Assembly: GCF_003336745.1 (NCBI RefSeq)
Contig: NZ_KZ851833.1
Location: 65,454-97,453, forward strand
Origin: Thermus caldifontis
GTDB lineage: Bacteria > Deinococcota > Deinococci > Deinococcales > Thermaceae
DNA length: 32,000 nt
Reading direction: 5' to 3'
The position numbers were made by a program, and so were the translations under genes. The notes under the pieces were generated by a model. That model searched no databases. It had not been told where the DNA came from and saw nothing but the letters and a program-made list of their open reading frames with translations. This document shows, piece after piece, positions 1,974 through 20,437 of this stretch (positions are counted from its first letter, which is position 1; the number at the start of each line of letters is the position of its first letter).

Positions 1974-1997
1974 GGCCGGCCCTAGGGCCGGCTTTTC
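1974..1997 (+). terminator. intrinsic terminator after tRNA-Pro
   Basis: GC-rich hairpin GCCGGCCC/GGGCCGGC followed by TTTT (1993-1996). Confidence 0.65.
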
Positions 1998-1998
1998 G

Positions 1999-2004
1999 TA
2001 TACT
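1999..2004 (+). promoter_or_regulatory. possible -10 box (TATACT) giving a leaderless transcript for the Na/Pi-cotransporter gene
   Basis: TATACT lies 6 nt upstream of the GTG start at 2011. There is no Shine-Dalgarno and no convincing -35. Confidence 0.3.
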
Positions 2005-2010
2005 CCTCCC

Positions 2011-3501: not shown

Positions 3502-3511
3502 GCTAGGAAGC

Positions 3512-4027
3512 GTGGTGAGGATCCTGGGCGGCAAGGCCAAGGGGGTTCCGCTGAAGGTGCCGGCTTCGGCCAGGCCCTCCCCAGTGCGCCTGAGAAAGGC
3601 CCTTTTTGACCTCCTTCGCCTCCGCTACCCCAAGCGGGGCCGGTTCCTGGACCTCTATGCCGGAAGCGGGGCGGTGGGCCTCGAGGCGGCCAGCGAGGGC
3701 TTTGAGGCTACCCTGGTGGAGAAGGACCAGGAAGCGGTGGCCCTTCTTAAGGAAAACCTCCGCCGCACCGGGCTAAGGGCTCGGATCGTTCCCCTTCCCG
3801 TGGAGGTTTTCCTGCCGGAGGCCAAGGCCCGGGGCGAGCGCTACACCGTGGCCTTCATGGCCCCTCCCTACCCCCTGGATCTCGTCCAGGCCTTCCAGGC
3901 CCTCCTGGAAAGCGGCCTGGTGGAGAAGGGAGGGCTTTATATCCTGCAACACCCTAAGGACCTGCACCTTCCCTTCGGGGAGCGGCGGGTATACGGGGAA
4001 AACGCCCTTACCCTGGTGGAGGCTTAG
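3512..4027 (+). CDS. rsmD: 16S rRNA (guanine966-N2)-methyltransferase RsmD
   Basis: VRILGGKAKGVPLKVPASARPSPVRLRKALFDLL, SAM motif LDLYAGSGAVGLEAASEG, and PPY motif FMAPPYP. In-frame GTG 3512 follows AGGAAG. Conserved rsmD-coaD pairing. Confidence 0.85.
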   Translation: MVRILGGKAKGVPLKVPASARPSPVRLRKALFDLLRLRYPKRGRFLDLYAGSGAVGLEAASEGFEATLVEKDQEAVALLKENLRRTGLRARIVPLPVEVFLPEAKARGERYTVAFMAPPYPLDLVQAFQALLESGLVEKGGLYILQHPKDLHLPFGERRVYGENALTLVEA

Positions 4028-4513
<486 letters not shown>

Positions 4514-4532
4514 AATCCCCTTGGAGGTAGCC

Positions 4533-6125
4533 ATGAAGGCTTTTCCCAGTAAGTACGGGAACGCCCTGGAGTTTGGGCATCTCATCGGCGGGGAGGAGGT
4601 TTACGAAGGGGAGGTCTTGGAGAGGCGGAATCCTGCGGACCTCGAGGACCTGGTGGCCCGCTTTCCCCAAGGTACCAAGGAAACCCTAAGGAAGGCTGCC
4701 CTCAAGGCGCGGGAGGCCTTTGGGGAGTGGAGCCAGACCCCAGCCCCCGTGCGGGGACAGGTGCTCTTCAACCTGGCCAAGATTCTGGAGAGGGAGAAGC
4801 CCACCCTGACCCGGCTCATGGTGCGGGAGGTGGGGAAGACCTTCAAGGAGGCGGGCGGGGATGTGCAGGAGGCCATCGACACCGCCATCTTCTTCGCCTC
4901 CGAGGGGCGGAGGCTTTACGGCCAAACCGTGCCCAGCGAGATGCGGAACAAGGAGCTTTTTACCTTCCGCAGGCCCTTGGGCGTGGTGGGGATGATCACC
5001 GCCGGAAACTTCCCCATCGCCGTGCCCAGCTGGAAGCTGATCCCCGCGGTCCTTACGGGTAACACCGTGGTGTGGAAGCCTTCCGACGACTCCCCCACCC
5101 TTTCCTATATCTTCGTCAAGCTTTTTGAGGAGGCGGGCCTGCCCCCCGGGGTCATCAACGTGGTCTTCGGGGGCGGGAAGGACTCCACGGGCCAGTGGCT
5201 GGTGGAGCTCATGGACGAGGGCCTCCTTAACAAGTTCGCCTTCACCGGCAGCACCCAGGTGGGGCGCTGGATCGGGGAGGTGGCAGGGCGGAACCTGATC
5301 CGGCCCACCCTGGAGCTTGGAGGAAAAAATCCCTTGGTGGTGATGCGGGATGCCGACCTGGATTTGGCGGTGGAAGGCGCCTGGTGGAGTGCCTTCGCCA
5401 CCGGGGGGCAGCGGTGCACCTCGGCGGGAAATATCCTCGTGGACGCACCCATTTATGACGAGTTCAAAAAGCGCTTCTTGGAAAGGACCGAGGCTACGGT
5501 GGTGGGGAACCCCCTTCTCCACCCTGAGGTCACCTATGGCCCCTTCATCAACGAGCGCCTATACCGCCGCTGGGAGGAGCATTACACCTGGGGAAAGGAG
5601 GACGGGGCCACCTTGCTCTTGGGCCAGGGGCGCATCACCCGGGAAAAGCCTTACCCCCGCTTCCGGGGTGACCCCGAGGCGGGCCTCTACGGCTGGCCTA
5701 CGGTCTGGGAGGCCAGGCCCGGGATGCGCCAGTTCGCCGAGGAGATCTTCGGCCCCACCATCAACCTGGTCAAGGTGGACGGCATTGAGGAGGCCATAGA
5801 GGTGGCCAACGCCACCCCCTACGGCCTGTCCAGCGCCATCTACACCCACCACCGCCACTGGGCTTACCTCTTCAAGGTGGGCATCCGGGCGGGGATGACC
5901 AGCATCAACAACGCCACCGTGGGCGCCGAGGCCCATCTGCCCTTCGGGGGGGTTAAGGCCAGCGGCAACGGGGCCCGGGAGTCGGGTATCTGGGTCATTG
6001 AGGAGTACACCTACTGGCATGCGGTGAACGAGGAGTACTCGGGCAAGCTCCAGCTGGCCCAGATGGATACCGGCTACGTAAGCCCCAAGCCCCCCACGCC
6101 CTGGGGAGAAATCCTGGGCTTTTGA
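4533..6125 (+). CDS. NAD(P)-dependent aldehyde dehydrogenase family protein (530 aa)
   Basis: ORF 4449..6125, start trimmed to ATG 4533 after GGAGG (4523-4527). ALDH catalytic motifs LELGGKNP (Glu) and GQRCTSAG (Cys). The substrate cannot be assigned from the sequence. Confidence 0.85.
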   Translation: MKAFPSKYGNALEFGHLIGGEEVYEGEVLERRNPADLEDLVARFPQGTKETLRKAALKAREAFGEWSQTPAPVRGQVLFNLAKILEREKPTLTRLMVREVGKTFKEAGGDVQEAIDTAIFFASEGRRLYGQTVPSEMRNKELFTFRRPLGVVGMITAGNFPIAVPSWKLIPAVLTGNTVVWKPSDDSPTLSYIFVKLFEEAGLPPGVINVVFGGGKDSTGQWLVELMDEGLLNKFAFTGSTQVGRWIGEVAGRNLIRPTLELGGKNPLVVMRDADLDLAVEGAWWSAFATGGQRCTSAGNILVDAPIYDEFKKRFLERTEATVVGNPLLHPEVTYGPFINERLYRRWEEHYTWGKEDGATLLLGQGRITREKPYPRFRGDPEAGLYGWPTVWEARPGMRQFAEEIFGPTINLVKVDGIEEAIEVANATPYGLSSAIYTHHRHWAYLFKVGIRAGMTSINNATVGAEAHLPFGGVKASGNGARESGIWVIEEYTYWHAVNEEYSGKLQLAQMDTGYVSPKPPTPWGEILGF

Positions 6126-6167
6126 AGGCCGGGAACGCCTTCCCCTTGGTCTTGGGATTCGCTCTGA

Positions 6168-6536
6168 CTACTGGGCGCTTTCCAGGTCGGGCCTGAGGCG
6201 CACGGCCTCCCGCAGATAGACATGGCGCACCTGGTCCTGGGGGGTGTCCGTGTTCCAAAGGGCCAGGACCCGGATCACCCGGGGCAGGCTTCCCGGGACC
6301 GGCACCTCCCGGGCGGAGAGAAGGGGGACCCGGTGCATGCCGATCTGGCGGGCGGCCTCGGCGGGGAAGGCGGAACTTAGGTCCTCCGTCACCGTGAAGA
6401 TGATGGCCGCCAGCTCCTCGTGGCTCTGGATGCCGTTTGCCTCCAGCATCTTGAGAAGGAGTTCCCGGGTGGCCTGGTGGATGGCCTCCGGCGTGTCCTC
6501 CTCCACGGTGATGGCGCCTCGGATGCCCCGGACCAT
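6168..6536 (-). CDS. aroH: chorismate mutase, AroH class
   Basis: 122 aa. MVRGIRGAITVEEDTPEAIHQATRELLLKMLEANGI... is the characteristic AroH-type monofunctional chorismate mutase N-terminus. Confidence 0.85.
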   Translation of the reverse strand: MVRGIRGAITVEEDTPEAIHQATRELLLKMLEANGIQSHEELAAIIFTVTEDLSSAFPAEAARQIGMHRVPLLSAREVPVPGSLPRVIRVLALWNTDTPQDQVRHVYLREAVRLRPDLESAQ

Positions 6537-6595
6537 AGTTGGGCTCCATGCTAAGGGGTTTTCTCCCTTGGGGCAAGGAGGGTAGGCTAGGGAGC

Positions 6596-7258
6596 ATGAA
6601 CCTGATGGCGGTGTTTGCCCATCCCGACGATGAGATCGGGGCTCTGGGCACCTTGGCCCTTCACGCCCGGCGTGGGGACCGGGTGCTTTTGGTTTGGATG
6701 ACCAGGGGGGAGTTGGCCAGCCAGTTCGGGGCCATGGAGGAGGCGAGGGTAGCGGAGATGCGGGAAGGGCACGGGGCCCATGTGGCCCAGCTGATCGGGG
6801 CCGAGTACCGTTTTCTCCCCTTTCGCGACACCTTTCTCACGGGGAGCCGGGAAGAGGCCCTGGCCCTGGCCCGGGTCATGGCCGAGTTTGGGCCGGATGC
6901 CGTCATCACCTGGGACCCTTGGGACGTGCACCCCGACCACCGGGCCACCCACCAGGCGGTGCTTTCTGCCCTGAAGCTTTGCCGCATCCCCAAACTGGTG
7001 GGGGAAGCGCACCGGAAGCCGGTTCGGCTGTACCACTACCCCAGGCGGGAGGTTTCCCGGCCTTATGTGTACGTGGATGTCTCCGCCACCCAGGAGGTGG
7101 CGGAGGCGGTGTTTGGCTTCTACCAGGCCTTCTACGGCTGGCCCGTTAGCCTCGAGGACTTTCGGGCCCAGCGGCGGCTTCGGGGCCGGGAGGCGGGGGT
7201 TCCCTTTGCGGAGGTGTTTCAGACGGACTCTCCTCCGGCGTGGCCGGCCCTTCCCTAA
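6596..7258 (+). CDS. PIG-L/LmbE family N-acetylglucosaminyl deacetylase (BshB-like)
   Basis: MNLMAVFAHPDDEIGALGT (AHPDDE metal motif) and HPDH further on. Start chosen at ATG 6596; ATG 6548 is also possible. Confidence 0.75.
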   Translation: MNLMAVFAHPDDEIGALGTLALHARRGDRVLLVWMTRGELASQFGAMEEARVAEMREGHGAHVAQLIGAEYRFLPFRDTFLTGSREEALALARVMAEFGPDAVITWDPWDVHPDHRATHQAVLSALKLCRIPKLVGEAHRKPVRLYHYPRREVSRPYVYVDVSATQEVAEAVFGFYQAFYGWPVSLEDFRAQRRLRGREAGVPFAEVFQTDSPPAWPALP

Positions 7259-8522
7259 GTCCCTCCTCGGGGTCGTAGGGAGGGGTGAGGACGTAGGCCA
7301 GCACCACCGCAGGTAGGACCAGGGGCAAGGTGGCGTACCCACCCCACTCTGTCGCCAGCAAGGTGGCGGCAAAGGGAGCCCGGGCCACCCCTGCCAGCAC
7401 GGCCACGCCTCCCGCCAGGGCCAGGGCTTCTGGGGGTAGGTCCAGGGGGCCTGGGAGGTGGGCCAGGAAGCTACCCAGAAGCCCGCCCAAGACCAAAGCG
7501 GGGGTATAGGGGGCGCCGTAGGCCCGGACCCCACTGGCCAAAAGGAGCAGGGCCAGCTTGGCCAGGATAAGGTAAAGGAGGGCCTTGGGTGGAATGAGGG
7601 GGGTGGTGGCCACGGCCACAAAGCCCAGGCCCGTACCCAGGGCCTCGGGGAGGAAAAGGAGGGCCAAGGCCAAGGCCAGGCCCAAGAGGCCGTGCCGCCA
7701 GGGAAAGGCCAAGGGGGAGAGGTACCTTTGCAGGAGGCGGGCGCCTTCCATCCAGAGGGTGGCCAGCATGGCGGCTGCCAGGCCCACCAGCGCCCCAGCT
7801 GGCAAGGCCCCTAGGTCCATGGGGGCGCTAAGGGGCAAGAGGGGAGTGTAGCCAAAGAAGGCCCCGTACACGGCGAAGGCCGAGAGGGCCCCGATGAGGG
7901 CTGGGGTTAGGGCCCGGGCCTCGAGGAGGAGGCTCCGGTAGAGGATCTCCGTGGCCAAAAGGGCCCCAGCTACGGGAGCGTGGAGGCTGGCCCCAAGCCC
8001 GGCGGCAAGGCCAGCAAAGGCGAGACCCCCGCCCAGACGGGGAAAGCGCCGGTCCAGGCCCCGGCCCAGCCAAAGCCCCAGCACCCCAAAGGGACCTTCC
8101 CGCCCCATGGGGGAGTAGAGGGAGAGCTGGAGCACCCCCCCTAAAACGGCCCGCAGGTGGGAGGAAGGGGGGCTTGGCCGGTCCTCCCGGGCCTGAAGCA
8201 GGAGAGCGGCAAGCCCCTGCCCCGTCCCCAGAAAGCTAGTGAGGGCGAAGAGGAAGGGAAAGAGGAAGGCGAGGGGCCAGAGGGAGGGTCCAGTGAAGGC
8301 CTGGGCCAGGCCTCCTTCCCCTGGGGGCTCGGGGGCCAGATAACCAAAGAAGAGACCAAAGGCTTCGGTCAAAACCCGAAGGAGCCCATTCAACAGAGCC
8401 ACTAAAAGTCCGGCCAGGGCCCCGGTGAAGGCGCTGTAGAGGATGAGGGGGCCGGTGTGCCGGATTTCCTCATCCCAAAGGGAGGGGAGGTTGAGCTGGG
8501 GGCCGCGGCCCAAGGGGCGCAT
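7146..8522 (-). CDS. ClC-family voltage-gated chloride channel / H+-Cl- antiporter
   Basis: 458 aa polytopic protein with the ClC signature GREGPFGVLG and a GxxxP-type third selectivity segment (GAPYTPAL). Its ATG overlaps the transposase stop (TGATG at 8520-8524). Confidence 0.8.
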   Translation of the reverse strand: MRPLGRGPQLNLPSLWDEEIRHTGPLILYSAFTGALAGLLVALLNGLLRVLTEAFGLFFGYLAPEPPGEGGLAQAFTGPSLWPLAFLFPFLFALTSFLGTGQGLAALLLQAREDRPSPPSSHLRAVLGGVLQLSLYSPMGREGPFGVLGLWLGRGLDRRFPRLGGGLAFAGLAAGLGASLHAPVAGALLATEILYRSLLLEARALTPALIGALSAFAVYGAFFGYTPLLPLSAPMDLGALPAGALVGLAAAMLATLWMEGARLLQRYLSPLAFPWRHGLLGLALALALLFLPEALGTGLGFVAVATTPLIPPKALLYLILAKLALLLLASGVRAYGAPYTPALVLGGLLGSFLAHLPGPLDLPPEALALAGGVAVLAGVARAPFAATLLATEWGGYATLPLVLPAVVLAYVLTPPYDPEEGLREGPATPEESPSETPPQREPPPPGPEAAAGPESPRG

Positions 8523-9463
8523 CAGACATTAACCTCCCCCTTGTCAAGCCCCCCCTTGACACACACAACCCACGCCGCACGAGCCAAGCGGTTAGCAAGG
8601 GCCACCAGAGCCACCTTTTTGGGCTTACCCCGAGCCATCAACGCTTCCACGAAAGACCTATGGAGGGACGACGACCGGTAGGCCGCCACAGCAGCCATAT
8701 AGTACGCACCACGCAGACCCGGCGGACCAAAACGAGAAATACGAGACGACTGGGGCATAACGCCAGATTGAACAATCCTAGGAGTGAGCCCAGTAAAGGC
8801 CGCATATGCACGAGCCGAGCGAAAGCGTCGCAAGTCCCCAGAATAGGCGAGTATCCGTATCGCCAACACCTGACCAATCCCAGGCAAGGACATCAGAGAC
8901 TCAACCCACGATGACAGAAGGTCATCCGAACCCACCACCTGAAGGGCCTCCCTCAGAACACGACGACGGAGCCCCTCCACACCAGCAGGAATATCCCGCA
9001 GAAGGTCAGCCAGCCCAGGGACAACATATTCCCACGCGTGCAAGCGGTTCAGCATACCGACATAATCAGACGTCAGACTATCCCACAAGCGGACTAAAAC
9101 ACCCAGGAGAACCAAAGAATCTTCGGACGGATAGTAAGGCGGTAACTGCTGCCACCTTTCAGCCACAAAGCGGGCAATCAGACGAGCATCCGCGCGATCC
9201 GTCTTAGCACGCCGGAGGAGGGAACGGCTGTAACTCTTCACCGCAAACGGATTTAGAACAACCACATGGAAACCCGCACGATAAAGGGCATAGGCAAGGG
9301 GACGATAATAGGTACCCGTGCCCTCCAAACCAACAACAGCACCAGACGGCAACCGCTGGAGCAAATCCGGAATACCCGCAGGATTAGCCACCCGGAGTAC
9401 CTCACCCTCTGGACCTAGGGCGACATCAAGCCACCTGGAACCAACATCCACACCCACAAACAT
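8522..9463 (-). CDS. IS110-family DEDD transposase/recombinase (313 aa from ATG 9463)
   Basis: MFVGVDVGSRWLDVA (first Asp). LEGTGTYYRPLAYALYRAGFHVVVLNPFAVKSYSRSLLRRAKTDRADARLIARF (DEDD_Tnp_IS110-type). PGIGQVLAIRILAYSGDLRRFRSARAYAAFTGLTPRIVQSG...ISRFGPPGLRGAYYMAA (Transposase_20-type C-domain). The ORF-track start at 9529 and an in-frame GTG at 9484 are alternatives. Confidence 0.9.
   Translation of the reverse strand: MFVGVDVGSRWLDVALGPEGEVLRVANPAGIPDLLQRLPSGAVVGLEGTGTYYRPLAYALYRAGFHVVVLNPFAVKSYSRSLLRRAKTDRADARLIARFVAERWQQLPPYYPSEDSLVLLGVLVRLWDSLTSDYVGMLNRLHAWEYVVPGLADLLRDIPAGVEGLRRRVLREALQVVGSDDLLSSWVESLMSLPGIGQVLAIRILAYSGDLRRFRSARAYAAFTGLTPRIVQSGVMPQSSRISRFGPPGLRGAYYMAAVAAYRSSSLHRSFVEALMARGKPKKVALVALANRLARAAWVVCVKGGLDKGEVNV
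8523..8527. repeat. left junction copy of the 5-nt CAGAC direct repeat (candidate recombination core)
   Basis: ...GGGGCGCAT CAGAC ATTAACC... at the point where the GC-rich host sequence switches to phage-like composition. The same pentamer is at 15179-15183. Confidence 0.5.
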
Positions 9464-9615
9464 ACGCAGAAAAGGGACGGGCACCCAAGGCACTCTTATA
9501 CGCGACCGCGTAGGGCCAACATTAACCACGCCAGGGATTTAGGCCAGTCTGACGCACGACCCCAAAAGGCCAGGAGTGTACACGGCCCGCCCGCCCAAAA
9601 GGAGTATAACCCAGC
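9464..9615 (-). ncRNA. candidate bridge-type guide RNA / structured 5' leader of the IS110-family recombinase
   Basis: A noncoding 152 nt between the TM/Cys ORF stop and the recombinase ATG. Minus-sense GTACACTCC (9581-9573) matches the prophage right end. GGTTAATGT (9527-9519) matches the left end. GCGTCAGAC (9555-9547) is complementary to core plus host flank GTCTGATGC. A TATACT -10-like box lies at 9608-9603. No structure was computed. Confidence 0.4.
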
Positions 9616-9855
9616 CTAACGCCTTAAGCGATAGACCCCACGCCGAGGGTCATACGGACATTGACGAAAAGCCACGTACCGACAATGGCGCTTATAGGCC
9701 TTGACTTGCAAAGCTAACCTATGAGGCATACCACACACAGAACACTTAGCCGGACCAGCTGACGCGGGACCAGTCAAACGCCTCCTCATCCGCAGATAAA
9801 GAAGGTACAGGGTCCAGAGGAGAACGATTAAGAGCATGAGGAGGAGCAGACTCAT
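9616..9855 (-). CDS. small membrane protein with TM helix and CxxC...Cx7C cluster (79 aa), overlapping the zot 3' end in the +1 frame
   Basis: MSLLLLMLLIVLLWTLYLLYLRMRRR (TM plus positive-inside) followed by CSVCGMPHRL...HCRYVAFRQCPYD. It may be the missing TM/periplasmic part of pI. Confidence 0.4.
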   Translation of the reverse strand: MSLLLLMLLIVLLWTLYLLYLRMRRRLTGPASAGPAKCSVCGMPHRLALQVKAYKRHCRYVAFRQCPYDPRRGVYRLRR

Positions 9856-10696
9856 GAGAAGAGACTACATCACCCCACTTCTCCCGTAAAACCTCATGGG
9901 GAGGAACCCCCCGGCGATATGCATCAGCGAGCTCGCGCATGGAGAGGAATGGCAACCCATCCGACGGACGGAAACGCCCCTGTAGGCGAGAAGCATCCCA
10001 CCTCAAACCCATCCGGTCCATGATGGCACGGCGTTTAGGGTCCAGTTCCCGTTGAAGCCGGACAATGGGGGGCTCAAAAATAGCGTGGGTATCATAGCAA
10101 CTAGCAGCCAGAGGGTCCAGGATAACGATGCTATTACGAGCCACGCCCTCAAACACGCCCCGGGTAGTGCGCTGCATTATGCCCAACGACTCATCCATGA
10201 TAGCGGTATAGCGCAGGACAGGACGACCACGAGCCCAGGGACGAAGGAGCAGACGCAACCAAAACGGTGCCGGACGAGCCCAGAAAACATTAGCAACGAG
10301 TTCCCGCACGATTGCATCGACAGAACCATACCGCTGGGTAGCTAAATATACGTCGACGCCGACCTTCCGATGTTGCGACCAGAACGCTATCACCTCCACC
10401 GGAATCAGGTCAAACTGCCTAGACGGCAACCACATATGGGCCTCATCAAACAGGAGAACCCCATCATGGACGTTCAACAACTCAGCATAATCCCGAATCT
10501 CACGGATCATGTCAGCACGCAAGACGGCGTCACGATGCGATAACCTAGCACGCCGACGGAGCCACAGATAAACACGCTCCGGAATCAGACCGAAGTTCGC
10601 ATAGACACGCCGACCCGCCTTAAGAGCCTCCAGACCCTTGATAACCAAGGCGTACGACTTGCCTGAACCGGGCACACCCACGAACGCCTCTATCAT
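9746..10696 (-). CDS. Zot / pI-like P-loop assembly ATPase
   Basis: MIEAFVGVPGSGKSYALV (Walker A at the extreme N-terminus, typical of the Zot family) and VLLFDEAHMW (Walker B). ATGA overlap with the upstream pVI-like gene at 10693-10696. Confidence 0.85.
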   Translation of the reverse strand: MIEAFVGVPGSGKSYALVIKGLEALKAGRRVYANFGLIPERVYLWLRRRARLSHRDAVLRADMIREIRDYAELLNVHDGVLLFDEAHMWLPSRQFDLIPVEVIAFWSQHRKVGVDVYLATQRYGSVDAIVRELVANVFWARPAPFWLRLLLRPWARGRPVLRYTAIMDESLGIMQRTTRGVFEGVARNSIVILDPLAASCYDTHAIFEPPIVRLQRELDPKRRAIMDRMGLRWDASRLQGRFRPSDGLPFLSMRELADAYRRGVPPHEVLREKWGDVVSSHESAPPHALNRSPLDPVPSLSADEEAFDWSRVSWSG

Positions 10697-11124
10697 CGGC
10701 CACCCCGGATGAAGGTAATGATGCGCCAAATAGCCATTAAGCCATAAAACGTACCCCAGAGGCTAAACGCCAGGATAGCATCGGAAACGGGCAGAATACG
10801 GTCAGCAACAGAAAACGCAGGCACGATAGGGTTGATGGCATCCAACAGAACAGTAGGAACAGGAGGAAGAAGAGAAGCCAGGAAAGTCAGAAGCTTTATA
10901 GGCAACACTAGAAGGACACCCAGGATGGAAAACAGAGCAGAGATAGCCCAGGTTAAAAACTCAATAAACCAGTTCCACGCAGTAGCCAGGACGGCGTCTA
11001 CGACAGACCACACCCACCGCAGAACGCCCGTAACAACAGCCCACAACCAGGCAAAAAAGCCAGCGACAGTACCGGCCAGCCACTGGAACAGCTCCAGGAG
11101 GCCCTCAACAATAGCCGCCATCAT
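10693..11124 (-). CDS. pVI-like multi-TM minor virion/assembly protein (143 aa)
   Basis: Very hydrophobic, Trp-rich, with 3-4 predicted TM helices. It sits between the pIII-like gene and zot, as gene VI does in Ff. GGGAGGTGG lies immediately upstream of ATGATG. Confidence 0.5.
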   Translation of the reverse strand: MMAAIVEGLLELFQWLAGTVAGFFAWLWAVVTGVLRWVWSVVDAVLATAWNWFIEFLTWAISALFSILGVLLVLPIKLLTFLASLLPPVPTVLLDAINPIVPAFSVADRILPVSDAILAFSLWGTFYGLMAIWRIITFIRGGR

Positions 11125-11163
11125 CCACCTCCCGACTAACCCCTTCCGCCCCCCACGGCCAGG

Positions 11164-11314
11164 GTACTGGGGGCGGGGACCCCGCCGTCAAGGGTGCAGA
11201 GCAGCCCGCGGGCTGCCCCTGCATGTCCAAACCCCGTCCTCCAACACCGGTAAACGTGCGTGATGGAGGGCAGCCCGCGGCCCAAGCCCTTGACGGCACC
11301 CCGCCCCAGAGTAC
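11164..11314. repeat. long imperfect inverted repeat (about 60-nt arms, 36-nt loop) in a GC-rich intergenic region of the prophage
   Basis: The left arm 11164-11225 aligns with the reverse complement of 11262-11314. Matching blocks are GTACT, GGGGCGGGG, GCCGTCAAGGG and CCGCGGGCTGCCC. The left arm contains the perfect palindrome GCAGCCCGCGGGCTGC; the right arm carries a related imperfect copy (GGCAGCCCGCGGCCC). 11161-11220 is 77% G+C. Confidence 0.75.
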
Positions 11315-11357
11315 CGAACAGTTAAGGGGGCGGAAGGGGAAGAAAGGGCTCATGGCA

Positions 11358-13022
11358 TCACCCCTGGACATCCAGACCACGACGGACCATGAGGAGGACG
11401 AAGGAGAGCCACAGCAACCCCGCCAGGATGGGGCGGAACGACTCGGCCGTCTGGAAAAAGGGCGTCTCGCACGGGCTAATCGTCGCCCGGACTGGACCGA
11501 GAGGGACATCAAACGTGCACTGGGCACCCTCCCGACTCACCGATACCCGGCTCAACGCCAACACGATACCAAACGGAAACTTATCCGCTAGGACCGATTT
11601 CAACTCACGGATAGCCTGCTGCCACCGCTGAACTACCTGCTCCTCCCAGGGTTGGAGCAAACGATCCAACTCAGGCAACGGCTGGCGCTCAACCTCCCTG
11701 GTAGGGAACTCCACCTCTTTCAAACCCGGGACAGGAGGACCGCCCGGCCATTGAGAGTCCTCAGGTTGCTCCTCCGGTTCAGCCTCAGGACGGCTCTCGG
11801 GAGAGTACGGGTCCGTACCCGACTCAATTTCCTTCCAATCGGGAACGCTATCTCCATCCGTATCCTGGTTATACGGAAGCTGATACGGGAACTCATTGGG
11901 GTTACTCGGGTCGGTACCCCGCTTTATCTCGTCGGCATCCGGCCAGCCATCCCCATCCGTATCCGTAGACGGTGCTGGCCGACGACTAGGATGACTGTTG
12001 GGGTCATAGGGGTTAGTCCCTACCTGGACCTCCTCCAGCGTGGTATACCCATCCCCATCAGGGTCCGCATAGGGGTCAGGATACTCATTCGGATTATTTA
12101 TGACGTCCGGCCACGGGACTCCGCGGCGATTCGCCTCCTCCCACTCCACCCAATCCGGGAACCCATCACCGTCCGTATCAATATCACGCCTAGTAAACGG
12201 GTTATCGGTCCACTGGTTAGGGTTTGGGACAGGGTCCAACTGCACGCCCGGCCATGGCTGTGCCATAGACGACGGCTCATGGGCATCCAGATAGCTCGTA
12301 ACCACGTTTTTGATACCCTCAGCTGCACTGGGTTGCTGCTGCAACCACTGATCCAAATCCGGTTTGTCCTCAGACGACACCAGGACATCCTCAGCCCATG
12401 AGAGGTCCTGCAAAAACCTCTGCTGGTCCTGGGACCGCACACCGTTCACCAACGACGACCTAGGCGGCACCCAAATATAATCCTGTGCCCAAACACCCAA
12501 CTGATTCTTCACATATCGGTGCGCATACGCCCTGGCATCCTCTGCAGGACACTCCACGGGTGTTTTAGACCACCCGTTAGGGCTATAGTGATCCACCCAG
12601 CCATCCGTCCTACCGGACACGTACAAGGAAAACCTAAACTTGTACTTACAGGAGTATACCGTCGACGACCCAGACCCCTGGGACACGGGATAGGCCTGAT
12701 ACTGGCCAGCAGCAGCCCAAACCGTGGGCGCCCAGTAATACCAATCATCCAATGGGGTACCCGTATCCCGACGCGCAATGTCATAAAACCAATGCAGAGC
12801 ACCCGACACCAACGCGGCACCCAGGAGCACGCCCCCCGTCCACCGCACATATCGGCCTACCGTGGCCTGACGGCGAAACTGACGGTTAGACCACTCAATA
12901 ATCTCATCCAGGGTCATGCCCTGGACCACGCCCTTCACGGCATCACGAAACTGTTGGGAGGCAAGGGCGGACCCCCCACCCAGCGAGACAGCCAATACCA
13001 GGAGGAAGATCCGCCCCCACAT
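11358..13022 (-). CDS. pIII-like adsorption/minor coat protein with signal peptide, four DxDGDG calcium-binding-type repeats and a C-terminal membrane anchor (554 aa)
   Basis: N-terminus MWGRIFLLVLAVSLGGGSALASQ. Repeats are DTDGDGFPDW.., DPDGDGYTTLEEVQVGTNPYDPNS, DTDGDGWPDADEIKRGTDPSNPNE and DTDGDSVPDWKEIESGTDPYSPES. C-terminus FRPILAGLLWLSFVLLMVRRGL. The ATG lies 1 nt after the coat-gene stop. Confidence 0.65.
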   Translation of the reverse strand: MWGRIFLLVLAVSLGGGSALASQQFRDAVKGVVQGMTLDEIIEWSNRQFRRQATVGRYVRWTGGVLLGAALVSGALHWFYDIARRDTGTPLDDWYYWAPTVWAAAGQYQAYPVSQGSGSSTVYSCKYKFRFSLYVSGRTDGWVDHYSPNGWSKTPVECPAEDARAYAHRYVKNQLGVWAQDYIWVPPRSSLVNGVRSQDQQRFLQDLSWAEDVLVSSEDKPDLDQWLQQQPSAAEGIKNVVTSYLDAHEPSSMAQPWPGVQLDPVPNPNQWTDNPFTRRDIDTDGDGFPDWVEWEEANRRGVPWPDVINNPNEYPDPYADPDGDGYTTLEEVQVGTNPYDPNSHPSRRPAPSTDTDGDGWPDADEIKRGTDPSNPNEFPYQLPYNQDTDGDSVPDWKEIESGTDPYSPESRPEAEPEEQPEDSQWPGGPPVPGLKEVEFPTREVERQPLPELDRLLQPWEEQVVQRWQQAIRELKSVLADKFPFGIVLALSRVSVSREGAQCTFDVPLGPVRATISPCETPFFQTAESFRPILAGLLWLSFVLLMVRRGLDVQG

Positions 13023-13023
13023 A

Positions 13024-13164
13024 CTAGCCCTTGAGGAACTTCTTCGCGTAGCGCCAAGCAGCCGCAAGACCGATCGTCAACGCCAACACGGCCGCGCCTG
13101 CACCCGCGATAGCCAGAATATACTGAGTAACCGTATTAGCCACCTCTGCTGGCTCGAATCCCAT
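13024..13164 (-). CDS. inovirus major coat protein (pVIII-like, 46 aa); not in the ORF track
   Basis: Hand translation gives MGFEPAEVANTVTQYILAIAGAGAAVLALTIGLAAAWRYAKKFLKG: acidic N-terminus, one hydrophobic helix, basic C-terminus. It is preceded by AAAGGAGGTGAGGT. From memory it closely resembles the 46-aa coat protein of Thermus phage PH75. Confidence 0.85.
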   Translation of the reverse strand: MGFEPAEVANTVTQYILAIAGAGAAVLALTIGLAAAWRYAKKFLKG

Positions 13165-13210
13165 ACCTCACCTCCTTTCTGGACCTCCACGGGGTTAGCC
13201 CCGATTGTCC

Positions 13211-13312
13211 CTAGAGCCTCCTGAGCAGGTTCCGGAGGAACGCAGCCACAACACCAGCCGCAACCCCCCACCAAAAGGCCGTATAGAGCTCGGCCACATC
13301 AAACCCCTCCAT
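13211..13312 (-). CDS. small coat-like hydrophobic protein (33 aa, pVII/pIX-like)
   Basis: Hand translation gives MEGFDVAELYTAFWWGVAAGVVAAFLRNLLRRL: acidic N-terminus, TM helix, basic C-terminus. Position matches genes VII/IX of Ff. Confidence 0.5.
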   Translation of the reverse strand: MEGFDVAELYTAFWWGVAAGVVAAFLRNLLRRL

Positions 13313-13403
13313 AGAGCCTTCCCATGTACCGGTACGCCGCTAACAGAGCGTACGGGATACTAGCCAGACCCAGGAACCACCCGAACCATTCAACAGGGTT
13401 CAC
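13299..13403 (-). CDS. small hydrophobic protein (34 aa, pVII/pIX-like)
   Basis: The GTG start overlaps the upstream stop (GTGA) and follows GGGAGGTGA. Translation (V)NPVEWFGWFLGLASIPYALLAAYRYMGRLYGGV. Confidence 0.45.
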   Translation of the reverse strand: MNPVEWFGWFLGLASIPYALLAAYRYMGRLYGGV

Positions 13404-13492
13404 CAATCACCTCCCGACAGAAGACCCGCAATAACACCCAGCCCAAACGCAAAAACCAGCAGGCTTTGCCACAACTCAGGAGGAAGGAGCAT
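13400..13492 (-). CDS. small hydrophobic protein (30 aa)
   Basis: MLLPPELWQSLLVFAFGLGVIAGLLSGGDW. The ATG overlaps the 3' end of the pV-like gene. Confidence 0.4.
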   Translation of the reverse strand: MLLPPELWQSLLVFAFGLGVIAGLLSGGDW

Positions 13493-13778
13493 TTTCCTTC
13501 TTACCAGGTACCACAGGAGCCACCAGCGTAGCCCCCGTCACCAACGGCCGCACCTCATTAGGACGGCCATAACCATTGGCCACCGGCAGGTCCATGTCAA
13601 GCTTGTAAATGCCCGGGAACACGCGCATGGTATCCGCCACCTCAGGCAACGCCTCTAGTTCAGCAACTGCCAGCCCCCTCTGATTCGGGTTACGAGGAGT
13701 AGAAGCTACCGTAACCCTAGCGCCATGCGTCCCGTCTTTCCGCTGAAAGATGCTCACACCCAAAACCAGAATCTGCAT
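13476..13778 (-). CDS. putative ssDNA-binding protein (pV-like, 100 aa)
   Basis: ORF 13476..13808 trimmed to ATG 13778, which follows GGAGGTGCAGC. Size and position (directly after Rep, before the small coat genes) match gene V. No diagnostic motif was recognised. Confidence 0.4.
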   Translation of the reverse strand: MQILVLGVSIFQRKDGTHGARVTVASTPRNPNQRGLAVAELEALPEVADTMRVFPGIYKLDMDLPVANGYGRPNEVRPLVTGATLVAPVVPGKKENAPSS

Positions 13779-13788
13779 GCTGCACCTC

Positions 13789-15153
13789 CTAACCAGGAAC
13801 ACCACCAAACGCCCACTTTTCCGGCATCAACCCAACAGCTGCTAGTTTCCGTTGCCACGACCTCGTGTATGCCACCGATGCCTCTTTAGCCAGTCTCTCC
13901 CTTTCGTCCATATCCGAGCCCAACGCTCTGAACGCTCCTACCCACCAGTCCCGAAAGCTGACGTTAAACTTCGCCGCAGCCACTAGCGCCGTCAGAAACG
14001 CACCCATCGCCTGCTTCGCTAGCGCCACCGGATCAACCCGCCTGAACAGCCTATCCCGCACCAGTTTTCTCCTATCACCCCCCTCCCCAAAGGCCCGTTG
14101 TACACGGACCCATACAGGATCAACGGGAACATCACGCAGACGCCCATATCTGTGCGCCCTGTCCCCATCCCGCAACACCAACCACGCTCCCGTCAAATAC
14201 GCCCACACGGACGGCAACGCCCACAGGAACGTATCCCAGTCCCGCAAATCTGTCCCATCGCCCTCCACAACCATCTCCCGAAGGGCCTCGGTAGTCAACT
14301 GAAACTCCACCCGGACCACTTCCCGAAGCGGCTCATCGCCAAGCTCCTCATACATAGCCAGCAAATATCTAGTGGCCGGTTTAACCGTAGCCTCAACCGA
14401 TTTGGAATAGACCCTCGCCATCAATGGACCACGACCAAAAACAAATCCCGACCACTGACGACGGTACACGAATGCCGATGCCTGCTCCAGACCCTCCACC
14501 CACGACCCCGGAACCTCCAGTCGCTTTTGGGGGGGCGTGTTACTCATGGGCCCCTCCTGGGGGGCGGGCCCGGCTTCGCCGGGCTCCGCACCCCCCAGGG
14601 AGTAGAACCCCCTCACATGACTCCTGGACGTGAACCGGTGCAGGTCCTCAATCTGGAACGTCCCAGGCTCCACATCTATATCCACAAACACATCAGCACG
14701 GGATACCTGAACACGCTCAGGACGAACACCAGTAAGATTCTCAGCCGCCCTCAGCACCCACTCCACAACGGCGTTAGCATCCCTATCCGCATACAGCATG
14801 TAGGTCCCCGTGAACTCCACACGCATGGCCGGAAAGTCCCTGCGCTGCGTAGTATCCTTCACGGAGCTAAGGCGGACGAACACCAACCCCCCAAAGGACA
14901 GCTGCCAGGCATAGTGCCTAGTAGGCTGCACCACTGCCGCCTCAAACAAACGGTCATGGTCCGACGGATTCGGCAACGGAAAATAGGCATCAATCCCCCA
15001 GAAAATCGCACCCTCGGGGTCCCGACGATACAACTCCTTCAGGCTATCTAGCGTGTCCTCAATATCATCCGGCAGCTGATACGCACCGTCCGGCCAATAC
15101 AGATTAACGACCAGGGTGTCTATGCCGTACCCCAGGACCCTAGGAGAGCTCAT
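13789..15153 (-). CDS. rolling-circle replication initiator (pII / Phage_CRI-like), 454 aa
   Basis: The N-terminus MSSPRVLGYGIDTLVVNLYWPDG resembles the fd gene II N-terminus (MIDMLVLRLPF...). It is the first gene of the inovirus module. The family assignment needs a profile search. Confidence 0.55.
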   Translation of the reverse strand: MSSPRVLGYGIDTLVVNLYWPDGAYQLPDDIEDTLDSLKELYRRDPEGAIFWGIDAYFPLPNPSDHDRLFEAAVVQPTRHYAWQLSFGGLVFVRLSSVKDTTQRRDFPAMRVEFTGTYMLYADRDANAVVEWVLRAAENLTGVRPERVQVSRADVFVDIDVEPGTFQIEDLHRFTSRSHVRGFYSLGGAEPGEAGPAPQEGPMSNTPPQKRLEVPGSWVEGLEQASAFVYRRQWSGFVFGRGPLMARVYSKSVEATVKPATRYLLAMYEELGDEPLREVVRVEFQLTTEALREMVVEGDGTDLRDWDTFLWALPSVWAYLTGAWLVLRDGDRAHRYGRLRDVPVDPVWVRVQRAFGEGGDRRKLVRDRLFRRVDPVALAKQAMGAFLTALVAAAKFNVSFRDWWVGAFRALGSDMDERERLAKEASVAYTRSWQRKLAAVGLMPEKWAFGGVPG

Positions 15154-15160
15154 GAGTCCG

Positions 15161-16273
15161 TTATAAGAGGGAGTGTACCAGACTTATGGGGGTTCCCCGG
15201 GTCAGGCGGGGGGTGGGAAGGCCCAGGGCCCGGTAGCCTCCCCGGGTTAGGGCCCGGACCAGGAGCCGGGGTTCCGCCTTCCCCCAGAGGGATAGCGCCT
15301 CGTTTTTCACGTCCAGGTCAGGGCTGCTGGCCCGGGAGTCCGTGCCCAGGGCCAGCTCTACCCCGTGGCGGGCGTAAAGCCCCAAGGGGGCTTCCCCCAC
15401 TTGGAGGTTCCCGTTGGACCGGGGGCATAGGACCACCTTGCTGCCCGAATCCGCCACCATCCGCACCTCTTCCTCATCCACGTGTACCCCGTGCACCAAA
15501 ACGGTATCGGGCCCCAGGACACCAAGGGTCTGGAGATAGCGCACGGGGGTGAGGCCCGGGGCCTTCCAGGGGGTTCGGCTAAAGCGCCGGTACACCCCGG
15601 CCAGGGGGCCTTCCCCCGTCCTCAGGAAGGCCACCTCCTCCCGGCTTTCCGCGGCGTGGACCATGAGGGGAAGGCCCTGGGTGTGGGCGTAGTGGGCTAG
15701 TTTCTGCAGGAGGGGAGGGCTCACCGAGTAGGGGGCATGCGGGGAAAGGCCTATCCTGACCCGCCCTTCCCTCTTGCGCCAGGCTTCCACCTTGGCCCTC
15801 ACCTTCTGGAACATCTCCTCCGCATCCTGGGGATCCGGGGCGAAGACCTCGTAAAAGGCTATGCCGGGCAAAGGGCTTTCCTGGAGGAGAAACTCCATCA
15901 CCTCGTCCTGGAAGACGATGTCCGCAAAGGCGCCCACCCCGCTTTGCACCAGCTCCTCGAGGCCCCTTTGCGCCGCCCTAAGCTCCCGCTTTTCCCGGTG
16001 GGCCACCACGTGGGGAATGAAGCCGGAAAAGGGCCCTTGATAAAGGGGATGCAGGGAGAGATCCAGGTGGGTGTGGGCGTTCACGGGGGGTGGGAAGAGG
16101 GCTTTTCCCTTGTGGATCACCTCCGCCTGGGGAAAGCGGGCCTTTAGTTCCTCCAGGCTTCCCTGGCCCACCACCGTGCCCCCTTGCACGGCGAGGGCTC
16201 CATGGAGCATGGGGGTGCCGAAGCCGGTGTACACCACTTCGGCGGTCCAGAGCTCAGTCTTTAGCCAGAACAT
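15161..16273 (-). CDS. amidohydrolase-superfamily metallohydrolase (ATZ/TRZ, nucleoside-deaminase-like subgroup), 370 aa
   Basis: VNAHTHLDLS (HxH), HAAES, VHGVH and LGTDS metal/catalytic motifs. Start trimmed to ATG 16273, overlapping the GNAT stop. The last ~8 codons and the stop are encoded by phage-like low-GC DNA. Confidence 0.7.
   Translation of the reverse strand: MFWLKTELWTAEVVYTGFGTPMLHGALAVQGGTVVGQGSLEELKARFPQAEVIHKGKALFPPPVNAHTHLDLSLHPLYQGPFSGFIPHVVAHREKRELRAAQRGLEELVQSGVGAFADIVFQDEVMEFLLQESPLPGIAFYEVFAPDPQDAEEMFQKVRAKVEAWRKREGRVRIGLSPHAPYSVSPPLLQKLAHYAHTQGLPLMVHAAESREEVAFLRTGEGPLAGVYRRFSRTPWKAPGLTPVRYLQTLGVLGPDTVLVHGVHVDEEEVRMVADSGSKVVLCPRSNGNLQVGEAPLGLYARHGVELALGTDSRASSPDLDVKNEALSLWGKAEPRLLVRALTRGGYRALGLPTPRLTRGTPISLVHSLL
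15179..15183. repeat. right junction copy of the CAGAC direct repeat
   Basis: ...GGAGTGTAC CAGAC TTATGGGGGTTCCCCGGG... The composition returns to GC-rich host sequence a few nt further on. Confidence 0.5.
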
Positions 16274-17008
16274 ACCGGTTGGGGTGCCGCACAAAGTCCA
16301 CCGCCCGAAAGCCCCGGGCAAAGTAGTGGCCGAGGACCTGGCGGCTGTGTTCCCGCCAGCTAAGGGCTAAGGTGGGATCCTCTTTTAGGATCCTCCCCCA
16401 GTCCTCGGGGATCTGGAAAAGGAGGCGGGGAGCCTCGAGGTCCAAGAAGGCTTCCTGGGGCCTATCCCCCTCCACCCGGTTGGCCTGGGGTAGCCCCTCT
16501 ACCTCGGCTTCGGGAGGAGGGGCGTAGATGCGGGTGTAGACCCTTTCCGAAAGGAGTTCCCACTCCGCCAGGAGCCGATCCGAAGGGGCTCCAGCGTTGA
16601 TGCCCGTCATGGGGCCATAGTGGTCGGGAAGGTAGGTCCTGGCCGTGGCCCCCAGCTTCCTCAGGTTGAAGTTGGCGTTCACCCCCCTCAAGGGATCAAA
16701 GGTCCAGACCACCTTCCTAATCCCCCGGACCAGGCACCAGTCCCGCTGGAAGCGCTTTAGCAGGAGGGCTGCCCCCGTGCCCCGGTAGGCTTCCAGGACC
16801 CCCAGCATGTGGGAGTGCTGGAGGGTGGGGTCCTGGGTGGGAAAGCCGAAGACGAAGCCCACCATCTTGCCTTCCCAGAAAGCCCCCGCCACCAAGCCCC
16901 CTTCGTCCTGGACGGCGATGAGAAGGCCTCTTGGCACCAGGTCGCTCTCCGCGCGGCCCCAGACCTCCCGCTGGAGCTCCACCACGGCCTCCATCTCCTC
17001 GGGTCCTC

Positions 17009-17036
<28 letters not shown>
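16254..17036 (-). CDS. GNAT-fold N-acyltransferase (260 aa)
   Basis: ORF 16254..17261 trimmed to ATG 17036 (MAEVHVRELRGPEEMEAVVELQREVWG). Acyl-CoA motif-A-like LEAYRGTGAALLLK. The ORF-track N-terminal extension is a Gly/Arg/Pro-rich artefact overlapping the upstream gene. Confidence 0.55.
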
Positions 17037-19649
<2,613 letters not shown>

Positions 19650-19675
19650 GTCCCGCATTTTACCTTGCGGAAGCC

Positions 19676-20419
19676 CTACGAAAGCCACTCGGCTAAGGCC
19701 CAGACCAAAGGGGCCAGGAGAAGGGCAGGGAGGAAGGAGCCCACCCGCACCTTGGTGAGGCCCAGGAGGTTGATCCCCACCCCTAGGACCATAAGCCCCC
19801 CCACCCCGGTCACCAGGAGGACCCGGGGGTCCTGGGCGGGGTCGGGGAGGACCTGGCTTAGGGTACCCGCCAGCAGGGCGATCCCTCCCTGGTAGCCCAG
19901 GATCACCAGGACGCTAAACCCCACGCCGATGCCGAAGGAGCTGGTGAGGGCGATGGCGGAAAGCCCGTCCAGGGTGGCCTTTAGGAGAAGAAGGCTGGGG
20001 TCACCCGTAAGGCCATTTTGGATGGAGCCAAGGAGGGTCATGGGCCCCACGCAGAAGAGAAGGCTTGCGGCCACAAAACCTTCGGTGAAGCTTCCGCCTC
20101 CCCGTACCGCCTGCTTGATCCTCTCCCCGATGCCCTCGAGGCCCTCCTCAATCCGCCACCACTCCCCCAAAAGCCCCCCCAGGACCAGGGCGATGAGCCC
20201 CAGGACAACCCCGTCCATGGCCCCACCCCTGGCTTTTCCCAGGGCGCCCGCCATGGAGAACCCGATGAAAAGGGTGGTGAGCCCCACCCCCTGGACCATG
20301 ATGCGGGCCATGCGCTCGGGTAGCCGGCCCCGTAACAAAAGACCCAACCCCGTGCCCAGGGTCACGGTGGCGGCGTTGGTCAGGGTCCCCGAGAGCTTGT
20401 CCAGAAGGCTGAGCTCCAT
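19676..20419 (-). CDS. DUF554-family integral membrane protein
   Basis: MELSLLDKLSGTLTNAATVTLGTGLGLLLRGRLPERM... Polytopic, ~247 aa. Start trimmed to ATG 20419. Confidence 0.65.
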   Translation of the reverse strand: MELSLLDKLSGTLTNAATVTLGTGLGLLLRGRLPERMARIMVQGVGLTTLFIGFSMAGALGKARGGAMDGVVLGLIALVLGGLLGEWWRIEEGLEGIGERIKQAVRGGGSFTEGFVAASLLFCVGPMTLLGSIQNGLTGDPSLLLLKATLDGLSAIALTSSFGIGVGFSVLVILGYQGGIALLAGTLSQVLPDPAQDPRVLLVTGVGGLMVLGVGINLLGLTKVRVGSFLPALLLAPLVWALAEWLS

Positions 20420-20437
20420 GGGGGGTATTCTACGGGA

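Follow-up and report, generated by a model that had tools for sequence, protein, structure and literature searches.

Filamentous phages (inoviruses) of Thermus are best characterised in phiOH3 (NC_045425; also called OH3), the subject of virion proteomics and replication studies in 2016 (PMC4763002). Three further cultured phages, phiOH16 (LC210520), Zuza8 (PP554188) and Zuza27 (PQ109074), have genomes of 6.5-6.8 kb with the gene order tnp, gII, gV, gVII, gIX, gVIII, gIII, gVI and Zot. Passages of a 2024 paper report Thermus proviruses bounded by an endonuclease gene (gII) and an IS110 transposase gene, and propose transposase-mediated integration by analogy with the Neisseria phage Nf (PMC11437467); those of its passages found by term mention no att sites for filamentous phages, no guide RNA and no split promoter. 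Recombinases of the IS110 family use a bridge RNA that pairs with both target and donor DNA (PMC11208160). Here, we analyse a stretch of 32,000 nucleotides from Thermus caldifontis (RefSeq assembly GCF_003336745.1, contig NZ_KZ851833.1, positions 65,454 to 97,453, forward strand; hereafter the window) which contains an inovirus prophage with the same gene order and the same structural and replication genes as these phages. We put at roughly 0.85 the probability that this prophage is a temperate filamentous phage, integrated as its replicative-form genome, and that its lysogeny module consists of a bridge RNA of ~123 nucleotides and an IS110-family DEDD/Ser recombinase.

A full-text search of incomplete coverage, combining "bridge RNA" with filamentous phage, inovirus, prophage or lysogeny, returned no paper connecting them. 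The papers on the IS621 bridge system do not discuss phage-borne systems, and a 2026 preprint describes IS110 elements as able to carry large cargo, including phage-derived DNA, with no mention of inoviruses or Thermus. The prophage type is already published, then, and a bridge RNA in these phages was found in no paper. We observe directly the anatomy of the element and its homologies, the empty site and exact junctions, and the way in which RNA and junctions co-vary. The comparative case that they make for bridge-RNA-guided lysogeny in this phage group is a strong one, as judged from sequence.

A single insertion at the overlap of two host genes

The ClC protein encoded next to the prophage was searched in one genome per species. 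The uninterrupted amidohydrolase-ClC site was found in 11 loci (nine named Thermus species, two Thermus metagenome-assembled genomes (MAGs) and one Thermaceae MAG), among them T. altitudinis, the ClC of which is 96% identical. The empty site reads ...GGTACACTCCCTCTGATGCGCCCC..., with the amidohydrolase stop TGA overlapping the ClC start ATG. From this comparison the prophage spans positions 8524-15165 (6,642 bp) on the minus strand, as do all features of the element described below. Empty sites (...CTCCCT[CT]GATGCG...) hold a single CT at the crossover, and the prophage has a CT at each end: the attL copy lies at 15166-15167 and the attR copy, which forms the last prophage bases, at 8524-8525. 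On the minus strand the left junction reads ...GGTACACTCCCT-CT/TATAACGGACTCATG(gII) and the right junction ...TTGACAAGGGGGAGGTTAATGT-CT/GATGCGCCCC, the slash marking the boundary. Compared with the cultured phages, the prophage is a phage circle opened in the 46-63-nucleotide spacer between tnp and gII. The amidohydrolase C-terminus changes from ...HSL to ...HSLL, i.e. one leucine is gained and the TAA stop is supplied by the phage, while the TGATG stop/start overlap is rebuilt ahead of ClC using the TGA stop of the recombinase gene, formed across the junction. The insertion preserves the host gene structure closely, and a phage GGAGG lies 11 nucleotides upstream of the ClC ATG.

A first-pass annotation, made from the sequence alone, had placed a PH75-like inovirus prophage between the amidohydrolase and ClC genes at 8522-15190. 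Its core reading is supported both by profile matches (Zot PF05707, the PH75 coat and PHROG families) and by the empty sites in the 11 Thermus loci; its limits were close, the empty sites now placing the exact ends at 8524 and 15165. The open reading frames (ORFs) that it named all exist, on the minus strand and in the order given. The abrupt drop in composition is real and was overestimated: G+C is 57.8% in the prophage against 65.9% in 1-8523 and 62.9% in 15166-32000 (mean of 60-nucleotide lines, 57.8% inside and 63.9% outside), a difference of about 6 points and not 20, the host line chosen for comparison (7381-7440, 78.3%) being extreme. Its gene list left out three features within its own coordinates, namely the recombinase gene (8522-9466), the RNA gene (9474-9596) and a 79-residue ORF (9616-9855); the first two form the predicted integration module, which would explain how the prophage got there. 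Its remark that integrated inoviruses of thermophiles are barely characterised is outdated by the 2016 study of phiOH3 and by the 2024 report of Thermus proviruses of exactly this architecture, cited above.

Among 50,697 phage records searched by blastn, the block matched only five, representing four phages, all of them Thermus filamentous phages: Zuza8, Zuza27, phiOH16 and OH3 (two accessions). Nucleotide identity to them is 68-71% over 35-48% of the query (71% over 35% for Thomixvirus OH3) and per-gene amino-acid identity is 44-79%. Gene order matches the annotation of all four, every one of the nine annotated phiOH16 genes having a counterpart in the same order, and PHROG matches were obtained for 8 of 10 products (E-values from 1.6e-9 to 7.5e-164). 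With amino-acid identities in this range, and nucleotide identity of ~70% over less than half of the genome, the prophage is placed in the phiOH3/phiOH16/Zuza8 group (Paulinoviridae, Thomixvirus-like) as a distinct species.

An IS110-family recombinase and a predicted bridge RNA

The gene at the ClC end of the prophage (tnp, 8522-9466) encodes a 314-residue IS110-family bridge recombinase, 100% identical to WP_114311594.1 of Thermus caldifontis, an identity which makes this species almost certainly the source of the window. It matches PF01548 (1e-19), PF02371 (1e-20) and the NCBIfam profile NF033542, "IS110 family RNA-guided transposase" (195 bits, cut-off 140), as well as the solved enzymes IS621 (8wt6, E=3e-34) and ISCro4 (9t56, E=7e-35). 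The GxDxG, ExT, TDxxDA and SG motifs (GvDvg, lEgTg, kTDraDA and qSG) align with those of ISCro4, and IS621 is matched over the same residues.

Because IS110 recombinases use a bridge RNA pairing target and donor (PMC11208160), the ~200-nucleotide spacer upstream of tnp was compared with the junctions. Segments matching both the host site and the phage ends were found in a 123-nucleotide region just upstream of tnp, at 9474-9596. Read from 9596 to 9474, its layout is GGGCGGGC-G-GGCCG-U[GUACACUCC]-UGGCC-loop-GGUCG-U[GCGUCAGAC]-UGGCC ... GCG-U[GGUUAAUGU]-UGGCC-loop-GGUCG-[CGUAUAAGAG]-UGC ... GCCCGUCCC.

The first internal loop is the candidate target-binding loop. Its left-target guide (LTG) GUACACUCC (9573-9581) is identical at 9/9 positions to the host left target (LT) GTACACTCC at 15170-15178, in the 3' end of the amidohydrolase gene, a sequence unchanged at the empty site in 8 of 11 Thermus species. 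The right-target guide (RTG) with its handshake, GCGUCAGAC (9547-9555), matches the right target (RT) GATGC at 8519-8523, which includes the ClC start codon: 8 of 9 positions match and the ninth is a G:T wobble, as seen when the reverse complement GTCTGACGC is set against attR GTCTGATGC. The host site matched by the two segments is thus GTACACTCC ... CT GATGC.

The second loop is the candidate donor-binding loop, and matches the phage ends, GGTTAATGT CT TATAACG. Its left-donor guide (LDG) GGUUAAUGU (9519-9527) is identical at 9/9 positions to the left donor (LD) GGTTAATGT at 8526-8534, the last phage bases ahead of the core. The right-donor guide (RDG) with its handshake, CGUAUAAGAG (9493-9502), matches the right donor (RD), the first phage bases TATAAC at 15160-15165, over seven contiguous positions plus two after a one-nucleotide skip (reverse complement CTCTTATACG against attL CTCTTATAACG). 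The handshakes fit the IS621 rule (PMC11208158): the target-loop AC corresponds to donor positions 6-7 (GT) and the donor-loop AG to target positions 6-7 (CT).

The structure was derived by analogy, with pair counts as the test of it. It consists of two hairpins with two internal loops of 10+10 nucleotides, closed by a long-range helix P1 (9589-9596 with 9474-9482) in which 7 of 9 pairs show compensatory changes. In a 14-sequence alignment, 97.4% of helix cells are paired, a value reached by none of 500 shuffles; slid controls gave 29-48%. Hardly any variation is seen in the four short stems framing the loops, and the most variable columns of the alignment are those of the loop strands. The drawn structure replaced one obtained with RNAalifold on four sequences, in which the target hairpin was recovered and the donor hairpin mis-paired; folding of the region as a single sequence was uninformative (z=-0.13). 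Most likely, the region 9474-9596 is a bridge RNA gene, predicted to specify the host site as well as the phage ends.

Guides and junctions vary together in related elements

The same RNA is found upstream of tnp in phiOH16, Zuza8 and Zuza27 and in two IMG/VR contigs. It is also present in prophages of Thermus sp. PS18 (L019), T. albus (L023), T. caldilimi (L060) and Thermus sp. LT1-2-5 (L022), in Calidithermus timidus (L025/26), a Meiothermus MAG (L021), two metagenomic or MAG contigs (L027, L029) and a Logan contig (L054), and in two distant inoviruses with Rep_1-type initiators (L051-53, L055). A covariance model, R1, built from 12 copies, scores 98-124 bits on all Thermaceae copies (117 bits on the RNAs of the closest phages, the phiOH16/Zuza8/Zuza27 group) and 55-60 bits on the distant ones. 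In the window it finds exactly one site, at 111 bits, and in the empty-site loci none. Two loose DNA patterns returned 21 loci in IMG/VR, only two of which (L044, L045) were kept by the covariance model; protein-seeded tnp searches of metagenome and IMG/VR contigs gave only distant relatives or none.

In 13 elements (Zuza8, Zuza27, phiOH16, L019, L021, L022, L023, L025, L027, L029, L051, L055 and L060) the loop positions match the element's own attP or its own attL/attR. Own pairs of guide and junction mostly score 8-9 of 9, against cross-pair averages of 5.8-6.0; the low own-pair score of L029 arises only because its donor site is inverted. The relatives occupy different host loci, each of which fits the element's own target loop: upstream of PGM, next to hisA-like and IGPS genes or a response regulator gene, or inside another prophage-like island. 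L054 is a phage 78% identical in nucleotides to that of the window in the shared part. It has the target-loop strands of the window, without difference, and the identical junction ahead of ClC. Its host is T. scotoductus-like, with a ClC 96.8% identical in nucleotides to that of T. scotoductus DSM 8553, which has an empty site. The ClC site has therefore been used repeatedly, or was gained and lost precisely.

These loci bear on the best-known integration route of inoviruses (cited in PMC4763002), host XerC/XerD recombination at a dif-like site, known from CTXphi and XacF1. Were it at work here, the IS110 gene would be a passenger, but the insertion site is an overlap of two genes and not a dif site, the 2-nucleotide CT core at the junctions is typical of IS110, and the relatives sit at many loci, each matching its own target loop. 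We regard XerCD integration as extremely improbable.

The phage circles bear on another possibility, that two independent elements lie side by side: an inovirus prophage lacking a transposase and an ordinary IS110 insertion sequence next to it. The IS110 family is common in Thermus, and phiOH3 is a cultured relative without a transposase. phiOH3, however, corresponds to phiOH16 minus nucleotides 100-937, a deletion reaching from a point midway through the RNA, beyond the target loop, into tnp. It has lost tnp and the donor-loop half of the RNA and therefore cannot integrate by itself; it keeps attP and half of the RNA, a remnant on which R1 still scores 50 bits. In phiOH16, Zuza8 and Zuza27 the circle contains both RNA and tnp, with tnp between the Zot gene and gII and attP between tnp and gII. 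In the window, the donor loop matches the ends of the whole prophage, 6.6 kb apart, and not the flanks of tnp, and the empty site reveals a single insertion of 6,642 bp, bounded by one pair of CT cores. Two unconnected insertions are thus a highly improbable explanation.

Relative to tnp, the donor site is inverted in Zuza8 (L001), Zuza27 (L003), L029 and L045. In the donor loop of this clade, it is the gII side that the 5' strand complements, the 3' strand having the sense of the tnp side; the site is still flanked by the same -35 and -10 boxes.

Several relatives have features of their own. The PS18 prophage (L019 2664-2690, CP102606) lies inside another prophage-like island with an S24 peptidase, a tyrosine integrase and a Rad52-like protein. 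Its left target is within a perfect palindrome, CCTAAAGT-AC-ACTTTAGG, and its attL core is GT instead of CT; a search of phage genomes for its empty site gave only an 80%-identical 90-nucleotide piece of phage MN1. In the T. caldilimi prophage (L060 11353-12477, CP038452), gIII is interrupted by an IS4-like DDE transposase gene; the prophage is decayed, and its junctions and guides still match. The distant inoviruses (L051-L053, L055-L056) have a Rep_1-type initiator and other structural genes together with the same recombinase and RNA module and matching junctions, and L055 has its own secretin gene. This suggests that the lysogeny module moves between unrelated filamentous phages.

A putative promoter divided by integration

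The sequence TTGACA at 8542-8547, 18 nucleotides before the end of the core, is the putative -35 half of a promoter at the phage junction. Its distance from the core is conserved in 16 related elements (the box reading TTGACG in L051). When the ends are joined, TTGACA stands 17-18 nucleotides upstream of a TAnnnn hexamer in all elements, including the four circular phages, and the CT core ends the spacer. The hexamers seen are TATAAC, TACAAT, TACTAT, TACCGT, TACCAT, TACAAG, TACACA and TAGTAT, and in Thermaceae elements they lie 6-11 nucleotides from the gII ATG. The joined ends of the window give TTGACA-N18-TATAAC, the right donor TATAAC being the putative -10 half, 6 nucleotides ahead of the gII ATG. 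When the integrated block was scanned for consensus promoters, sites were no more frequent than in shuffled sequence, and no complete -35/-10 pair preceded gII. As integration separates the -35 box, left beside ClC, from the -10 box and gII, it should switch phage replication down; from this arrangement we infer that integration turns replication down and excision turns it on.

Replication, virion and assembly genes

The replication initiator gene gII (13789-15153) encodes 454 residues, matches phrog_33635 "endonuclease" (E=7.5e-164) and is 55-61% identical to gII of Zuza8, phiOH16, Zuza27 and OH3. It has no match in Pfam, NCBIfam or PDB sequences, and only 26 homologues are detectable, all those with a source name coming from Thermus. 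An AlphaFold2 model built on 20 of these 26 (pLDDT 79, pTM 0.70) has as its only significant PDB matches the RepDE proteins of the Rep_trans family (4cwc/4cwe; E=1.6e-7, probability 1.0, TM-score 0.49 per target). At the level of the fold only, the model supports a Rep_trans-type rolling-circle initiator, which is also how far the "pII-like Rep" of the first-pass annotation is borne out.

The next gene, gV (13476-13808, likely start 13778, 100 residues), encodes a single-stranded DNA-binding protein (phrog_38435, E=9e-30; 54-70% identical to the annotated gV of relatives). It is followed by the minor coat genes gVII (13400-13492, 30 residues; phrog_35129, E=1.6e-9, and synteny) and gIX (13299-13406, 35 residues; phrog_38437, E=1.4e-15). 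Between gIX and gVIII lies a third small hydrophobic ORF of 33 residues (13211-13312), without a PHROG match and unannotated in all four GenBank phage records. It is conserved by tblastn in 12 related loci, representing 10 distinct elements, with the motif AFWWGxGAGLVASFLRNxLRRL.

The major coat gene gVIII (13024-13164) encodes a leaderless protein of 46 residues (phrog_33753, E=4e-21). The resemblance to the PH75 coat noted earlier, from a correctly quoted sequence, extends from end to end: the PH75 coat in PDB 1hgv is matched with E=4.7e-16 over residues 1-46. PH75 (1hgv, 1hgz, 1hh0) likewise has a leaderless 46-residue coat, identical at 32 of 46 positions, and the C-terminus AAW(K/R)YAK(K/R)FLKG is common to both. 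The PH75 genome is not public (PMC4763002), so that only the coat is comparable. At 70% coat identity the prophage is judged not to be PH75, and the label "PH75-like" holds for the coat, the sequenced relatives being phiOH3, phiOH16, Zuza8 and Zuza27.

The adsorption protein gene gIII (11358-13067, likely start 13022) encodes a signal peptide, MWGRIFLLVLAVSLGGGSALA, and TSP3_bac repeats (PF18884); its product matches phrog_36046 (E=2e-133) and is ~50% identical to gIII of relatives. Downstream of it are gVI (10693-11124), encoding a minor coat protein of 143 residues with several transmembrane segments (phrog_37052, E=2.7e-35), and gI (9746-10729, likely start 10696), encoding a Zot-type assembly ATPase (Pfam Zot PF05707, E=3.2e-16, 59.8 bits against a cut-off of 20.3; phrog_20922, E=7e-138). 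The gI product is 74-79% identical to its counterparts in the relatives, whose GenBank records name the gene "IV". By eye, it has no transmembrane helix. As previously noted, the block lacks a pIV secretin gene, none of its products matching a secretin family in Pfam, PHROG or NCBIfam profiles.

The 79-residue ORF at 9616-9855 partly shares its sequence with the 3' end of gI, in a different frame, and combines an N-terminal transmembrane helix with a four-cysteine motif. It has no Pfam, PHROG or NCBIfam match and is 67-85% identical by tblastn in 10 related elements, with the motif CxxCGMPHxLALQVKxYKRHCPYVAYGxCPYDPRRGxYRxRR; it is unannotated in the Zuza8 and Zuza27 records and absent from phiOH16 and OH3. 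Its product could be a membrane partner of the Zot protein, or a frameshift extension of it.

Far outside the prophage, at gathering thresholds Rfam finds in the whole window only a SAM riboswitch (1643-1779, minus strand; RF00162, 84 bits) and a tRNA, tRNA-Pro(CGG) (1894-1970, plus strand), both ordinary host features.

A model of RNA-guided lysogeny and its weighing

By analogy with IS621, the phage circle would carry ...TTGACA-N18(ending GGTTAATGT-CT)-TATAACGGACTC-ATG(gII), which would serve both as attP and as promoter of a nearly leaderless gII. The donor loop would pair with GGTTAATGT on the bottom strand and with CT-TATA(A)CG on the top strand, and the target loop with GTACACTCC and CT-GATGC at the overlap of amidohydrolase stop and ClC start. 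The recombinase would then exchange strands at the CT core, leaving a CT at both ends. Were the same complex to excise the phage, attP and the promoter would be re-formed, giving the circular junction CTTGACAAGGGGGAGGTTAATGTCTTATAACGGACTCATG and a restored attB, ...GGTACACTCCCTCTGATGCG... Virions would be assembled by the Zot-type gI protein and exported through a host secretin. In such a scheme, it is probable that the whole phage is a 6.6-kb IS110 "bridge" element and that the virus picks its lysogeny site by a bispecific guide RNA, and not by an att site read by a protein.

Several points weigh against this model. Firstly, transcription of the RNA, catalysis by the recombinase, function of the promoter, production of virions and excision are all steps that we infer. 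Secondly, the RNA has no Rfam 15 match at E<=1 in 8300-15400, and P1 was registered in the alignment by hand, which favours that helix. Thirdly, several relatives have weak -10 hexamers (TACACA, TACAAG), the TATAAC of the window is without the consensus final T, and gII lies directly downstream of the co-directional amidohydrolase gene, read-through from which could keep gII expressed in the integrated state. Fourthly, the predicted circular junction (GGTTAATGTCTTATAACGG; ...CTTGACAAGGGGGAGGTTAATGTCTTATAACGGACTCATG...) gave 0 exact matches in the JGI metagenomes. Lastly, the left-target match ends 4 nucleotides ahead of the phage DNA in the window at 15166-15178 and in L054 at 1840-1870 (GTACACTCC-CT-CT/), and in PS18 at L019 2675-2700 (GTACACTTT-AG-GT/), leaving 2 unpaired nucleotides before the core, so that left-target pairing could differ from that of IS621 or work only weakly.

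In T. caldilimi L060 (GGGCTATC-CT/), C. timidus L025 (GGATAGT-CT/), L027 and L051, the left-target match runs into the core. The offset lowers the claim of a geometry identical to that of IS621, not the claim that the RNA acts as a bridge RNA. An isolated slip on the CTCT repeat was considered as its origin and ruled out: L054 has the same junction, and PS18 has the same 2-nucleotide gap at an unrelated, non-repetitive site. In both the window and PS18 the donor-loop handshake matches the two skipped bases.

Some of the same observations would fit a fossil, i.e. a prophage integrated earlier by an IS110 system and now immobile or unable to make virions. Besides the missing circular junction, tnp in the window no longer has a stop codon of its own, its frame continuing across the -35 box as far as the junction, RTG and RDG depart from their sites by one wobble and one skipped base, respectively, the T. 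caldilimi relative is clearly decayed, and in PS18 a G replaces the C of the attL core. In the circle, however, tnp would end only two codons later, at the TAA of TATAAC. The ten phage ORFs and tnp are full length relative to the cultured phages, all four guides still match and the handshake dinucleotides fit, and clean empty sites exist in conspecific or near relatives. On balance we consider a fossil unlikely, and retain a temperate phage with an RNA-guided lysogeny module as the preferred reading.

Should this reading be correct, relatives would have been retargeted to other host loci by changing ~18 loop nucleotides. One clade would carry an inverted donor site, and that of the window a left-target guide set back by 2 nucleotides, a geometry undescribed for IS621. 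With the crossover placed between the -35 and -10 boxes of the nearly leaderless gII, phage replication would be turned off and on by integration and excision themselves. The enzymes would also be natural bridge recombinases from high-temperature organisms.

Comparison with known systems

The prophage adds one species to the small described group of thermophilic inoviruses, with precisely mapped attB, attP, attL and attR. If its RNA is functional, the group would offer a natural case of RNA-programmed viral integration, with a guide-target series over at least 10 host sites, a promoter switch and thermostable recombinase-RNA pairs. phiOH16, Zuza8 and Zuza27 have the same IS110-family transposase and the same RNA fold upstream of tnp as the window, and differ from it in host, attB and attP. 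As they are cultured, in T. thermophilus HB8 and HB27, RNA-guided integration is directly testable in them. The integration sites predicted from their loops are CCAGTATA-CT-TTCCC for phiOH16, GGGGTAAG-CT-TTGGG for Zuza8 and TGGGTAAA-CT-CAAGG for Zuza27.

The Neisseria phages Nf and MDA (Kawai et al. 2005, as cited in passages of PMC11437467 and PMC4763002) are inoviruses like the element of the window, and their integration too is attributed to a phage-borne IS110-family (Piv-like) transposase, encoded at one end of the prophage. Unlike it, they are described there as having unrelated phage genes and a host of another phylum, and as integrating into repeat elements.

With the IS621/IS110 bridge systems (PMC11208160, PMC11208158), the element shares a recombinase with DEDD and Tnp domains and an RNA with two internal loops, located upstream of the recombinase gene. 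The strand logic is also shared, the 5' strand of each loop having the same sense as the left half-site and its 3' partner being complementary to the core and the right half-site, as are the 2-nucleotide handshake after each 3' guide, the CT core and a -35/-10 promoter rebuilt at the circle junction. For the discontiguous RDG pairing seen here, IS621 provides a precedent. Unlike in IS621, ~5.6 kb of phage genes lie between the core and the RNA gene, and the junction promoter faces the replication gene and not the RNA. Here, the RNA is closed by the long-range helix P1 and does not start with a 5' stem-loop, and LDG is not fully paired with the core. The LTG register, finally, varies between clades, that of the window stopping 2 nucleotides short of the core.

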